From a virus (Duplodnaviria; Heunggongvirae; Uroviricota; Caudoviricetes), in the IMG/VR virus record IMGVR_UViG_2671181040_000012: a stretch of DNA of 13,210 nt; one strand, written 5' to 3'. This document shows positions 1-6,000 of the stretch, one piece after another (position 1 is the stretch's first letter; each line of letters opens with the position of its first letter). The position numbers are program-made.

Positions 1-3000
1 ATGGCACGAAAAACCACTCCACTAACCATCACGGAGATCAAAAATGCACGACCAGGAGAAAAAGAATACACCCTGCAGGATGGCGGAGGATTGTTTCTTC
101 TGGTGAAGCCCTCCGGATCAAAAATCTGGCGCTTTACGTATTACCGACCCACTGACAAAAAACGAACCATCGTTAGTCTTGGTCCGCTGAATGATGTTTC
201 TCTGTCAGAAGCCAGAGAGCGACGAAACGAATACAGGGGACTTATAGCGAAGGGAGTTGACCCACAGGACCACGAACGCCGGAAACGTGAAGCAGAGAGC
301 CGGAAAAAGGGCAACACGTTCGAAAAAGTTGCCTCTGACTGGTACGAGATGAAAAAAGGCCAGAATCTCGCTTACAACACGATTAAGGATATCTGGCGAT
401 CCATGGAAAAATACGTATTCCCGCACATCGGAAAAACGCCAATAGATACCCTCACCGCTCGCCGCTTTGTTGAGATACTCACCCCCATTAAGGCGCGTGG
501 CAACCTGGAAACCCTGAAACGCGTTTTACAGCGCATCAATGAGGTGATGGATTTTGCTGCCAACAGTGGTCTGATTGACATCAACACCGCCGCGAACGTC
601 CGTAAGGCATTCCCTACCCCCACCAAAAAGCACATGCCAACCATCCGACCGGAACAGCTACCGCAGCTAATGCACGATTTATCGGTCGCCAGCATAGAAC
701 GGCAAACCAGATTGCTGATTGAGTGGCAGCTACTGACCGTAGCACGCCCCGCCGAAGCAGCCGCCACACGCTGGGAAGAAATAAACCTCGATGCCGAAAC
801 CTGGACGATTCCAGCCGGACGCATGAAGATGCGCCGTGACCATGTGATCCCCCTTTGTGGTCAGGCTATGGCTGTACTGGAAACCATGAAGCCAATCAGC
901 GCACACAGGGAACACGTTTTTCCCAGCCTTAAAAACCCGATGCTGCCAATGAGCAGCCAGACCGCTAACGCCGCATTGCGCCGGATGGGTTACGCTGGTG
1001 TGCTGGTGTCTCACGGATTACGCGCCATATTCAGCACAGCAGCGAACGAGGAAGGATTCGAACCGGACGTAATCGAGGCCGCGCTCGCACACGTGGACAC
1101 GAACGAGGTAAGGCGAGCATATAACCGAAGTAACTACCTGGAAAAACGTGTAGTACTTATGCGCTGGTGGGGTGAATTTGTGGAAACCGCAGCAACCGGA
1201 GTGACCATAGCCAGTGGTAAAAGGGGTATCCGTGCGGTGTGACTGTACAAAAAACCAGTACAACCAGTGCAAACCATGCTAAACCATCGTATAATCGCCT
1301 ATCTCCTCAACAGACAAGGAAAAACCCGACTCATGAGAAATCGAGATTTATTGAAATGGTCTGGCACGAAAAATCATCCAATGTCTGCGGTGAAGGGCTG
1401 CAACTGGCGTTAATGGCAAATCGTGAATTCTGGTCAACATACGATCCGGAAGACAAATCAACAGCCCCCACAAAACACGAGGTAGTCAGTTTTTTACGCT
1501 CGCGTGGCGCATCGAAAAATCTGGCTGAAAGCATCGACAAGGTGCTGAGGCCCACCAGCCTTAAATGTGGTGGGCGACCTAAGAAGTGGAAACGGTAATC
1601 ACAATAGCGGCCCCTTGCGGTCGCTATTTTTTTGCAAAAAGAAAGCGTAATCAATGAGATAAAAAACAGTGAGTACCGTTTTAAAACGGTGAGTACTGTT
1701 TTTCCCGCCCTGCCCTGTTTTACCGTATTTATCACCGGAATACGCCGGATTAACGAGGTAAAACACGATGGAAGTAATCAGAAAAATTCTTACCCGTCAG
1801 GAAGTAAAAAATATTCTGCGCATCAAGGCAGACAGTTCGCTACAGGACATGATCAACGCCGGAAAATTCCCGAAAGGCTTCAAAATCGGTCTGCGTCGTG
1901 TTGGCTGGTATGAAGATGAAGTGCTGGCCTGGCTGAAAGAGCGCGAGGAAGAAGCGCGCGGAACGGCTGCGTAATGGTGTGAGGCGTAACGCGATGAACA
2001 TAACAAAAAGCGCCCCGTTGCCGGAGCGCCCTTGCGAACAATTAACCTACTGCGCAAAAAATGAATCAGTGCAGTGGGATTATATCAACCGTGTAGCGAA
2101 GCGCCACAATTGCCGGATAACAGGCAAAACAAAGGCCACCTGCTACGGTGGCCATTCGACACAAGCTACACGTTATCCCCAACGCATGAGCATTGCCAAC
2201 AATGCCACATTTGCGGCTGGTGGGCAATGTGATCAGTGTGCTGGCTTGCTGGTGGGCTATTCCTGCTCTTTAACATCGTCATGCCGCGATGTTTTCCAGG
2301 TATGCGATCCCATTTTTGTGCGCCTGTACTCTTTTAAGAACTTCTCAAGGGCAAACGCACATGGCGCAAATCTCTCCTGTTCTTGTTCGCTTACCGCATT
2401 TTTGCGTTGTTTTTTCCTGGATGAGGATAATTTCTTTAATGATTTGTCAGTCATCGTAGATACCTGTAACCCAGTGCGCCACAGTTCACCGCACCACAGC
2501 GCTGGTGATGGTTACTCCTGCTCTTTGGCCTTGCGCCGCTGGCGGCGTTTGATCTCGCCTTCTAATGCTGCTGTTACAAACTGCCCTGTACTTTCGCCTT
2601 CTTCTTTAACCTTATCCATTGCATCAACGATATGGAGTGGGACACGTGCATCTATTCTTTTCGATTTTGCATTTACTGATTTCGTTGCCATCTCTGATTT
2701 CCGATTGGTTTGGTGTCCGACAATGATAGCGATAAAAAAGGTTAATGCAATGCTTGACGTGTCCCACACCATTAAAATAACATGTGTCCGACACTTGATT
2801 TTTATCAGTAATGAAACGACGAAACCCCGCACTGTTGGAGCAGTAACGGGGCTTCTAACCAAACCGTTAACTGGAGTAACGATTATGGCTGTAAGACAGC
2901 ATACCCCACGCCTGGCGCACACACAAACCGCCTTTGTGTGGCGTTTTCTGGCACTGAGTGCCGGAGAATCCCAAATCATCCACGTCACCGCATGGACGGA

Positions 3001-6000
3001 ACGCGAAGCGCGTAACCATTGCCCGTCTGGTTGTGTCGCTGTATTCGCCGCCCGTATTCGTCAGGAGGTGCGCCATGTGCAATAACACCCGTCCGGACGC
3101 AGCCGCCGAAGCAATCAGAACGCTGATGCACGCGCTGATTGATATTTCTGTTATCGCAGACAGGGCACATAAGCACGCCACCAGCGAAACAGAATATGCC
3201 GTGGCTTTCGTTCCTCACTCACTGGCTGTTATGCAATTTAGTGCTGATATGGCGCTGAATGAGGCAGGCAAAATTCTTACCGCAGATATTCAAGGGGCGC
3301 ACCATGCATGATGACCGTTATTTTAAATCAATGAGCCATGCAGAAAATGCGCTGACTAACAGTGAATGCTTGCGGCAAATATTGCTTATCTGGCTTGATG
3401 GTTTAAGTGATGCGCCGGAAGATGAACGTGAATCTAATCTTGCTGGTGCGTTTATTTCATTACTCGATACGGTAATCGTCGAATTAAATAAAGCGATCGA
3501 AATTCACGATAAAAAAATAAACGCGGAATAAAAACCATGAAACAGAAAAATTCTGGCTTTACTGCCAGCGGCCCCGCTCGGCCTGAAATCCGCCCAGGCG
3601 ATATTTTCAAAGATAAATATGGTGGACGAATAACGATAAAAACCGTTGACGATTTTCGCGTGACTTATATCCGCGAAGGTTATGCGCATCCCTGCGTGTC
3701 GTCTCATATGCGTTTTGAGAGTGAATTCACCCTGGTAAGCAAAGCACCACCAGCGAACTTAAGCGACATCGACAGAATCATGCGCGTTACAGGAATGGAA
3801 CGCATTAAGGCAGTACGTGAAATTATTCGTGAACGGGGAAAGGCAAAATGAAACTGGCACCGAACGTAAAACTGTTACCGAAAGATAAAGGCGAGGATGC
3901 AGTGATTTTTGCGGGGGATGACGCATACAGCCATGCAGAGCATTACATGCAGGGCGGAGAAGCCAGAAAGCGCGGCGACAAAATACCACCTGTTTATCTC
4001 GGACGGCGTGACCTGGGTAATCTGGAAAACCTGCGTATTGTGGATGAGGGTCGGTCACGCGCCATCGTCAGACGTGCCGGAAAACTGGATGACAAACTGG
4101 CGCTACAGATTGAAACCCTGCTGGCAGTGGCTGGTGTTAAGGAAGCCTGTTTTTGTGACGAGAACGGCGATTTACTGGAGGACTGGACACCACAGCTTGC
4201 CCGACTGAAAGACGAATACGAGCGCGGGGAAAGTCTGGTGTTGCCCTTAAAGAAAAAAATCACAGAAAGCCAGGGCGATGATGAATTAAAGCCCCGCGTT
4301 GAAAGCCGCGCCGATGGTGTTTTCTGGGTAACGCCCAAAGTGGATAAGCAGTCAGGCGAAATTATCCGGCCTGAAACGTGGTTATGTTCCCCGCTTGAAC
4401 TGCTGGGAACGGGGACAATCGGCAAAGAACATTACCGCGTGATGCGCTGGAAGAAACCCGCAAGCCATGAAGTCATCACAATGGCGGTTCCGTGCGGGGG
4501 CATTGGCGATCGTGACGGCTGGCGGTTGCTGAAAGACCACGGACTCAATGTGACAACCAACGGCAAATACAGGGCTATCCTGGCTGACTGGATGCAGTTA
4601 AGCGGAAGCCATGAGGAATGGCAGTTAAGCACAACAACGGGCTGGCATTTTGGCGCGTACATCATGCCGGACGGTTCGGTCATTGGTGAGTCTGAAAAAC
4701 CGATTCTGTTTACCGGAAAAACTGCCGCTGTTAATGGCTATTCCGTGGCAGGAACGGCGGAGGGCTGGCGCGATACCGTTGCGCGGCTGGCTGGAGGCAA
4801 TCCCTTAATGATGCTGGGTGTGGCGGTATCGCTATCCGCACCATTAATCGGGCTGGTGGGGGCTGACGGCTTCGGGGTACATCTTTTCGAACAGTCCACA
4901 GCAGGGAAAACCACCACACAGAACATCGCATCAAGTTTATGGGGAGAGCCGGACGCACAACGGCTGACCTGGTACGGTACAGCGTTAGGTATCGCCAACG
5001 AGGCAGAGGCACACAACGACGGGCTGTTACCCCTGGATGAAATAGGCCAGGCCGGAAACGCGCGGGAGGTGTCAACGTCTGCTTATACGCTGTTTAACGG
5101 TTCCGGGAAATTACAGGGGGCGAAGGACGGCGGCAACAGGGAGATAAAACACTGGCGAACAGTGGCAATCAGTACCGGAGAAATGGACGTTGAAACATTC
5201 CTCAAAACGGAGGGGATAAAAGTCAAGGCGGGGCAGCTTGTCCGCCTGCTTAACGTGCCGATGGAAAAAGCCACACAATTTCACGAATACAGCACCGGAA
5301 AGGCGCACGCAGACGCGTTAAAAGATGCCTGGACAGAAAATCACGGGGCGGCGGGTCGTGAATGGGTTAAATGGCTGGCAGACCACCAGCAGGAGGCAAA
5401 GGACACGGTAAGGTCATGCCGTGAACGGTGGCGCAACCTGATACCGGAGAGCTACGGCGAGCAGGTACACCGCGTGGGTGAGCGTTTCGCCATACTGGAG
5501 GCCGCACTTGTGCTTTCCTGTCATGTGACTGGCTGGGATGAGCAGGAATGCCGCGATGCCATTCAGCATAATTTTAATGCCTGGGTGAAGGAGTTCGGCA
5601 CGGGCAACAGGGAACACAGGCAGATTATTGAACAGGCAGAGGCTTTTTTAGCGTCGTTCGGATTCAGCAGATACCTTCCGTGGCCCAACACCGACGAGCG
5701 TGATTTACCGATTAAAGAGCTTGCCGGATACAGAAAGGGGAGTATCAGAAACGAAGATGACGAGTTCCGTTTTTACACGTTCCCGCATGTATTTGAGGGT
5801 GAGATAGCACAGGGATTTAATCCGTCTCACTTTGCCCGCGCGTTGAGTGCTGCCGGAATGCTGGAAGCGGGTAACGATCGCCGTTACAAGAAAAAGGCGC
5901 TCGGCAGGATTGGGGGGAAGCAGCATGTTTTTTACGTGCTGATGTTCCAGCCAGAAAGCGAAGAAGATTAATTTTTTCTCGCGTGTAGGGTGAAAATTTT

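Follow-up and report, generated by a model that had tools for sequence, protein, structure and literature searches.

This computational study concerns a predicted regulatory module in a 13,210-nucleotide stretch of DNA (IMG/VR virus record IMGVR_UViG_2671181040_000012; the whole stretch is hereafter called the window), in which a small ribbon-helix-helix (RHH) protein gene, three operator-like sites, two divergent promoters, and a predicted antisense RNA are located between the integration genes and the replication operon of a chromosomal island. The window is 100% identical to a chromosomal island of Escherichia coli MB06102 flanked by tRNA-Pro (adjacent to yejM) and yejO, between which it spans about 14 kb. 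Judged by its gene content, order, and size, it is a Gram-negative phage-inducible chromosomal island (PICI) of the EcCICFT073 type, such an element being defined here by int and alpA co-oriented at the left end by the att site, a primase/replication module thereafter, and a length of 10–20 kb without a full virion and lysis gene set. The gene order also fits the four-zone plan of Gram-negative PICIs, which is composed of integration, dynamic, replication, and late zones (PMC10111431), with the module in question placed where the integration zone meets the replication operon.

The left end of the window is occupied by the integrase gene (1–1242, plus strand), a hypothetical gene, and the gene for an AlpA-family regulator (1768–1974, plus strand; PF05930, 33.3 bits against a cutoff of 21). 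Two small leftward genes (2257–2454 and 2512–2691, minus strand) follow, the second of which is annotated in RefSeq and encodes a 59-amino-acid RHH protein of the YlcI/YnfO family, the putative repressor. The rightward operon starts at 2885 on the plus strand and comprises, in order, an Icd-like gene, three small open reading frames (ORFs), a DUF4222 gene, and the genes for a 707-amino-acid DUF927 primase/helicase, which matches PHROG 1139 (“DNA primase”), a single-stranded DNA-binding protein (SSB), a ProQ/FinO-domain protein, and a PerC protein. A K88-type fimbrial subunit gene is present on the minus strand 3′ of this operon, and a Nu1-type small terminase gene and a second PerC gene complete the gene order at the right end. 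The Icd-like gene (2885–3085, plus strand; Shine-Dalgarno sequence GGAG at 2873–2876; WP_053887903.1) encodes a 66-amino-acid protein that matches NCBIfam NF033153 with 64.2 bits (cutoff, 25; E value, 8.4e-18), and relatives of this gene are known to inhibit cell division (PMC8201110). Because the stretch at 2795–3074 thus holds the Icd-like gene from 2885 onward, the 290-nucleotide leader proposed in an earlier, sequence-only reading of the window had to be abandoned, and the actual leader is about 95 nucleotides long.

The divergent promoter region was analyzed for its promoter elements and repeated sites. The sequence-only reading had described back-to-back -35-like hexamers separated by 3 bp, each with a -10-like element at a distance of 16–18 bp, a duplicated motif at the predicted transcription starts, and a leftward gene for a 59-amino-acid RHH-like protein, and each of these features was recovered. 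The leftward promoter of the RHH gene (2723–2750, minus strand) consists of the -35 element TTGCAT (2750–2745), a 16-bp spacer, and the -10 element TATCAT (2728–2723). The rightward promoter of the Icd-like/replication operon (2754–2783, plus strand), which was also found by a promoter scan, consists of the -35 element TTGACG (2754–2759), an 18-bp spacer, and the -10 element TAACAT (2778–2783), and 3 bp separate the two -35 hexamers. GTGTCCGACA is present in exact copies at 2713–2722 and 2784–2793, each beginning directly after the -10 element of one of the two promoters, and a copy with one mismatch, GTGTCCCACA, is present at 2759–2768 inside the rightward promoter spacer. When up to one mismatch was allowed, GTGTCCGACA had four matches against 0.63 expected, a count reached by 1 of 200 shuffles. 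The predicted operator is an 11-bp palindrome, GTGTC-C-GACAC, of the form GTG-N5-CAC, which is perfect at 2784–2794, and GTGTCSSACAC with up to one mismatch was found in the 13.2-kb window only at 2635–2645, 2713–2723, 2759–2769, and 2784–2794. The three intergenic sites among them were designated O1 (GTGTCCGACAA, 2713–2723), which directly follows the leftward -10 element and lies at about +1 of the leftward promoter, O2 (GTGTCCCACAC, 2759–2769), which lies in the rightward promoter spacer and overlaps the last base of the rightward -35 element, and O3 (GTGTCCGACAC, 2784–2794), which is the perfect palindrome and lies at +1 of the rightward promoter. The third copy at 2759, the weaker fourth copy at 2635–2645, the 11-bp palindrome, and the antisense RNA described below are additions to the sequence-only reading.

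Ninety-five related loci, each encoding a relative of the 59-amino-acid protein, were collected from one-genome-per-species contigs (15 loci) and IMG/VR (80 loci). They represent more than 10 enterobacterial genera, including Pectobacterium, Yersinia, Samsonia, Enterobacter, Citrobacter, Serratia, Rouxiella, and Xenorhabdus-like backgrounds. A layout of three sites, which are 11–12-bp GTG-N5-CAC sequences at about -103, -78, and -31 from the ATG of the RHH gene, was common to all 95 loci. The middle site is abutted by a TTGAC/TTGAA hexamer in the related loci, and the distal and proximal sites are immediately preceded by TAnnnT and a TATACT-like -10 element, respectively. The position of O2 (about -78) is kept in all loci, and the O1-equivalent site (about -31) is found in nearly all of them with the core of the respective locus. 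O3 is about 25 bp from O2 in most loci; in several, the distal site has the opposite orientation to the other two, as expected for a binder with two-fold symmetry. Furthermore, the leftward -10 element (TATACT, TATGAT, or TATCAT) and its 16-bp spacing were conserved in 70 non-redundant intergenic sequences. The single promoter-like match in the promoter scan was not above chance (1 found, 1.6 expected), and the architecture is considered to be above chance because both promoters and all three sites are conserved in register in these 70 sequences. Any one locus has a single N5 core at its three sites, and this core varies among loci, with TCGGA, TCAGA, TCAGC, TCTTA, TTGAA, TGGCC, GCATT, AATCG, AACAC, AAATA, and GAGTC observed.

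The 59-amino-acid protein was assigned to the YlcI/YnfO family (NCBIfam NF041551) with 60.2 bits against a cutoff of 30 (E value, 1.5e-16; residues 9–50), and its structure model exhibited a beta-alpha-alpha fold that superimposes on solved RHH domains. In Pfam, the protein had no match, with no RHH-clan model above the gathering score, and 39 homologues yielded only sub-threshold matches to RHH_1, PSK_trans_fac, and CB_ParB_C (best E values, 0.007–0.03). A sequence search of the PDB also gave no match, and no paper assigning a function to the YlcI/YnfO family was found in a literature search. An upstream ATG at 2772, which would give an 86-amino-acid product (P0001), was rejected as the start, as the homologues all start with MATK or MATG preceded by a conserved Shine-Dalgarno sequence and the upstream stretch is promoter/operator DNA. 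In the family alignment, the C-terminal half is nearly invariant (GES..F, EIKRRQRR), and the most variable positions are 11–15, which form the predicted strand. The bases are read by Q9, N11, and R13 in Arc. In the usual RHH geometry, I13, A15, and V17 of the window protein would face the core of the protein and R12, D14, and R16 would face DNA; residues 12 and 14 are on the predicted DNA-reading strand of the RHH model. R16 is nearly invariant, like the outer GTG/CAC of the sites, and residues 12 and 14 are variable, like the N5 core.

The correspondence between residues 12/14 and the core was evaluated for 50 non-redundant protein/core combinations, in which cores were counted as the same within one mismatch. 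The core was common in 140 of 140 pairs with the same residues at 12/14, 32 of which were less than 70% identical over the rest of the protein. The strand sequence KSKKLEARVP, for example, was accompanied by GTGTCAGCCAC wherever it was found, in E. coli as well as in Xenorhabdus-like backgrounds. Conversely, pairs that were at least 85% identical elsewhere but differed at 12/14 had different cores in all 17 cases. This co-variation indirectly supports the idea that a beta-ribbon dimer reads the repeated operators. Mosaic loci were also present: L018 has the window-type RHH protein and operators with a different type of Icd-like gene, and L040 and L077 have a common first gene with different RHH proteins and operators. 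It is because of these mosaics that the operator type can be said to follow the RHH gene rather than the first rightward gene. The mosaics, the structural logic, and the placement of the sites on promoter core elements together make it very probable that the 59-amino-acid protein represses the rightward replication operon and regulates its own synthesis.

It is very unlikely that the sites instead serve another binder, such as AlpA, the Icd-like protein, the 65-amino-acid neighbour of the RHH protein, or a host protein, or act as replication iterons, with the RHH protein doing something else. AlpA is indeed a DNA-binding activator of island genes, and the PHROG families that match the Icd-like protein are labelled “transcriptional repressor”; however, the core varies in step with RHH residues 12/14 rather than with the first rightward gene, and many loci retain the sites without having the 65-amino-acid gene. 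As for iterons, the sites are palindromic and located on promoter core elements, and the origin of replication mapped in these islands is downstream of pri (PMC10111431). The 65-amino-acid ORF (2257–2454, minus strand; phrog_21027, E value 7e-43) is located downstream of the RHH gene and is probably co-transcribed with it. A type II toxin-antitoxin pair, in which the RHH protein would be a palindrome-autoregulated antitoxin and the 65-amino-acid protein a toxin, with stabilization of the island as the result, was also considered. We regard such a pair as highly improbable: the ORF is kept in E. coli loci but absent or different in many others, including many with the full operator set, so that no conserved toxin accompanies the sites, it has no match in Pfam, NCBIfam, or PADLOC, and two of the three sites are on the divergent promoter and not on that of the RHH gene itself. 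The product of the 65-amino-acid ORF is basic, and a motif, ERFAPC[AS]FALEKFLKE, is conserved in it among the E. coli loci.

With the 59-amino-acid protein as the repressor, RHH dimers would bind the three 11-bp GTG-N5-CAC operators. O2, lying between the rightward -35 and -10 elements, and O3, lying at +1, would block RNA polymerase and thereby keep the rightward operon silent, and O1 at the leftward +1 would bring about negative autoregulation of the repressor. The invariant Arg16 would read the invariant outer GTG/CAC and the variable residues 12/14 the variable N5 core; under such a two-residue code, an R12K/D14E swap would shift the specificity from GTGTCGGACAC towards GTGTCAGCCAC. The family appears, by its sequences, to contain at least 12 specificity (“immunity”) groups. 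In the L077-type group (L077–L096 from IMG/VR; KSQTVAARVP, GTGTTGAACAC), the proximal operator is at about -61, where it overlaps the leftward -35 element, and not at +1, a shift by which the predicted autoregulation is seen to be rewired within the family. The fourth operator-like copy at 2635–2645 has one mismatch and is located inside the RHH coding sequence, on the codons for R-V-P-L, within a 16-nucleotide, 94% inverted repeat with O2. Such a copy was seen only in immunity types whose operator resembles RVP codons, and it could be either a real fourth operator for looping in this immunity group or a by-product of the codons. The fourth operator together with a long inverted repeat (2606–2647 versus 2729–2772) was considered as a trait of the family and rejected, as it was significant only in the R-V-P-codon-like group (z-score about 4) and absent elsewhere.

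A strand-specific RNA structure was detected over the leader of the Icd-like gene. The structure is on the minus strand (2808–2892) and is composed of stem-loop 1 (SL1, 2890–2857), stem-loop 2 (SL2, 2855–2821), and a U-rich tail (2820–2808). SL1 has the anti-Shine-Dalgarno sequence CUCC in its loop, and SL2 has a GC-rich stem of 13–15 bp, behind which a T-rich tail is conserved in almost every locus. The folding energy of the window minus-strand RNA (2892–2808) was -32.6 kcal/mol with a z-score of -5.4 (reached by 0 of 200 shuffles), compared with a z-score of -1.0 for the plus strand. The consensus fold was -26.8 kcal/mol on the RHH-gene strand versus -0.3 kcal/mol on the icd strand, the former was more stable in 36 of 36 sequences, and G·U pairs in the helices numbered 139 and 6 on the respective strands. 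With regard to covariation, 95% of cells were paired, against 50% at most with slid partners, and double changes were found in 14 of 22 pairs, against 2–6 in slid controls. A putative promoter for this strand (2898–2926, minus strand) is located in codons 5–14 of the Icd-like gene and has the -10 element TATGCT (2903–2898) and the weak -35-like element TTGTGT (2926–2921). The T-A-n-n-n-T of its -10 element is invariant or nearly so despite differing coding contexts (QHT, QST, HDT, and HST, with some N-termini unalignable), and many relatives have an extended -10 element (TGnTATGAT/TGgTATGAT or TGgTATAAT). From the conserved -10 element and the strand-specific covarying structure, we therefore infer a cis-antisense RNA of about 80 nucleotides that would cover the start codon, the Shine-Dalgarno sequence, and most of the leader of the Icd-like gene. 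Expressed from the putative promoter within the initial codons of the Icd-like gene, this RNA would act as a second lock by blocking the translation of leaky transcripts or triggering their decay. A c4/CI-like immunity RNA on the sense strand of the leader was rejected, as Rfam gave no match to C4 (RF01695), isrK, or any other family in the whole window at an E value of 1 or lower and in 2700–2960 at an E value of 10 or lower, and the structure is selected on the opposite strand. A terminator-like hairpin at 2920–2940 on the plus strand, formed by CACACAAACCGCCTTTGTGTG and then GCGTTTTCTG, is present inside the Icd-like ORF, where it overlaps the antisense -35-like hexamer. The scan gave it no excess over chance (1 found, 1.4 expected), and only this Icd-like subtype has it.

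Rather than being a separate small RNA, the minus-strand structure could be the 5′ portion of a longer transcript that is independent of the operators and continues past SL2 into the RHH gene, with its promoter acting as an “establishment” promoter like lambda PRE. The promoter is outside the operator region, lambda PRE is likewise antisense to a lytic gene, and the U-tract after SL2 is imperfect, which makes read-through plausible. We nevertheless consider this quite unlikely, because SL2 has a GC-rich stem of that length with a conserved T-rich tail in nearly all loci and SL1, like dedicated antisense RNAs, displays its anti-Shine-Dalgarno sequence in the loop. Both roles could coexist, and read-through into the RHH gene from a PRE-like promoter is a possible additional role of the predicted antisense RNA.

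FinP is an antisense RNA of about 80 nucleotides with two stem-loops that is complementary to the 5′ untranslated region and ribosome-binding site of the first gene of its operon. The predicted RNA of the window is like FinP of the FinP/FinO system of F-like plasmids in size, in having two stem-loops, and in its target site, with no sequence relation. The window island also encodes a ProQ/FinO-domain protein (7030–7566), whereas EcCICFT073 is without an annotated ProQ/FinO gene. This gene is on the plus strand in the rightward operon after the SSB gene (PF04352; E value, 3e-24). FinO-type chaperones have two-hairpin antisense RNAs such as FinP among their targets, and the island protein might act on the predicted antisense RNA.

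Taken together, the RHH repressor, the three operators, and the antisense RNA probably constitute the maintenance (immunity-type) switch of a Gram-negative PICI. Several points weigh against this interpretation. The leftward -35 element fits at 3 of 6 positions, because of which the leftward promoter was missed by the promoter scan; the antisense -35 element is weak; and the U-tract of the antisense terminator is interrupted and fails the terminator-scan criterion in the window. L069 agrees with L055 and L092 in its strand residues, yet its left half-site is different. The co-variation is, moreover, confounded by the physical linkage of the gene and its sites, and this confound remains even though the mosaics argue against pure hitch-hiking. 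Finally, the over-expression of AlpA alone leads to the excision and uncontrolled replication of EcCICFT073 (PMC6092414), so that the switch cannot be the sole or top-level control. For this last reason, the switch is more likely a maintenance lock downstream of AlpA than a primary sensor. Thus, where the sequence-only reading had proposed a repressor switch as the induction control point, the RHH protein and the operator switch were largely right, whereas its leader was wrong and the part in induction was overstated.

Helper-induced AlpA would break the lock, and it may do so through transcripts that start at the alpA promoter and run on rightward through the convergent repressor gene. The leftward unit is closed by an intrinsic-terminator-like hairpin (2134–2153, minus strand), for which the terminator scan gave a 7-bp stem with 6 G-C pairs and the tail TTTGTTTT, and has a second minus-strand terminator at 2033–2006. 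In the rightward direction, no U-tail was found at the 2153–2134 and 2033–2006 hairpins; such read-through into the switch is possible because there is no rightward terminator in between.

The pMV158 design likewise pairs an RHH repressor with a short antisense RNA covering the site where translation of the first gene begins, and in it CopG and the antisense RNAII control repB. By this functional likeness, the RHH protein and the antisense RNA might act mainly after induction as a copy-number control that throttles the replication operon of the excised island. The regulated operon carries the primase/helicase and SSB genes, and close homologues are encoded in circular “plasmid” records of 10–17 kb, which suggests episomal forms. 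On the other hand, CopG is co-transcribed with repB as the first gene of the regulated operon, whereas the window repressor is divergent and its antisense RNA would target the Icd-like gene and not the initiator. A tight copy-number loop should also limit the replication of EcCICFT073, which is “uncontrolled” upon AlpA over-expression, and immunity systems typically diversify into many specificity groups. For these reasons, we consider copy-number control unlikely.

The maintenance switch proposed here was further compared with other known systems. The Stl/Rpr repressors of Staphylococcus aureus pathogenicity islands (SaPIs) and Gram-positive PICIs occupy the same place, between the integration genes and the excision/replication operon, and follow the same logic, in which the repressor gene reads leftward, away from the rightward replication operon (str/xis-rep), and the operators are intergenic (PMC6092414). 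However, Stl is a large helix-turn-helix repressor without homology to the 59-amino-acid RHH protein and is inactivated by the binding of a helper-phage protein, a kind of anti-repressor not known for the window module, whereas AlpA is the documented activator in Gram-negative islands, and an antisense RNA layer belongs only to the window module. The immI region of P22, which has divergent RHH repressors (Mnt and Arc, with the promoters Pant and Pmnt) and the sar antisense RNA, shows a functional likeness without detectable sequence homology; the window has one repressor instead of two and three 11-bp sites instead of the 17–21-bp Mnt/Arc operators, and its operon consists of the Icd-like and replication genes instead of an antirepressor gene. 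An Icd-family gene heads an RNA-guarded operon also in the immI region of P1/P7 (c4-icd-ant) and in the systems of the P4 CI RNA and the C4/isrK RNAs of some Gram-negative PICIs (PMC8201110; PMC10111431), and N15 is another case among the RNA-guarded icd operons likened to the window module. The c4 and CI RNAs are processed from the icd strand and act in trans on nearby sites, whereas the window RNA is a predicted cis-antisense RNA of the opposite strand. Unlike in P1/P7 immI, no ant gene was detected in the window.

The same module was found in the prototype island EcCICFT073 (NC_004431.1, 1,377,930–1,388,654), the gene order of which is as in the window. There, a YlcI/YnfO gene, C_RS30120, is divergent from an Icd-like gene, C_RS30125 (L100 25473–26052; NC_004431.1 1380473–1381052), and the intergenic region contains GGTGTGGCCCAC twice and CTGTCCCCCACC, together with matching promoter elements, a putative antisense promoter with TGgTATGAT, and the two hairpins. 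The locus tags of the two genes are of a later series, which suggests that they were added on re-annotation, and both were probably absent from the annotation used in the 2018 functional study, which names the gene that comes first after alpA “ORF3”. In the literature search, no repressor was found reported for EcCICFT073, and no later paper was found that connects these islands with an RHH protein, YlcI/YnfO, or an antisense RNA.

With respect to distribution, the 1-kb region matched 1,284 of 5,426 complete E. coli genomes, at up to 6 places per genome. The clade of the RHH protein is small, with 91 clusters at 50% identity among 1.84 billion representatives, and is rare on plasmids. It had no close homologues in 50,697 phage records and no match in PADLOC, and by these negatives the clade was rejected as a phage gene or known defence gene. 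Among E. coli and Klebsiella records, the circular “plasmids” NZ_CP148328.1 (10,790 bp), NZ_CP142848.1 (10,541 bp), and CP018459.1 (16,971 bp) encode RHH homologues; such small records may be excised, replicating PICIs assembled as plasmids. YlcI of E. coli K-12, which gave the family its name, is only 20% identical to the window protein, and in DLP12 its gene lies next to, and divergent from, the cos site and nohD, a homologue of Nu1, a context unlike that of the window. The ylcI-nohD upstream region of K-12 contains a CATCTAC repeat twice and no GTG-N5-CAC sites, and the phage branch of the YlcI/YnfO family may have a different role, perhaps near packaging.

The other genes of the island include accessory cargo. 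The K88/F4-type fimbrial subunit gene (8463–9275) stands alone on the minus strand, and the two PerC-family regulator genes are at 7563–7850 and 12902–13210 on the plus strand. PerC-like genes of other PICIs are reported to modulate how the locus of enterocyte effacement is expressed.

What appears to be new in this study is the combination of an RHH repressor and its operators with a cis-antisense RNA, as predicted from sequence, in an element family without a reported repressor. In its widest form, the proposal is that Gram-negative PICIs, EcCICFT073 among them, have their missing master repressor in the YlcI/YnfO-type RHH protein, with at least 12 orthogonal specificities set by two beta-strand residues and a new family of cis-antisense RNAs guarding the toxic Icd-like gene, the lock being broken by AlpA; we put this forward tentatively, as a serious possibility that falls somewhat short of being probable. 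With such a master repressor, related islands in one cell would not cross-regulate. When the IMG/VR genome identifiers were compared to see whether co-resident islands differ in specificity, no genome was common to the lists. If the proposal is true, an uncharacterized family of the y-ome would gain a function, and EcCICFT073 would gain a testable repressor, operator set, and small RNA. The immunity-like diversity of the islands would then be explained by a two-residue recognition code, and the repressors and their operators would provide compact orthogonal pairs for synthetic biology and engineered PICI “drones”.

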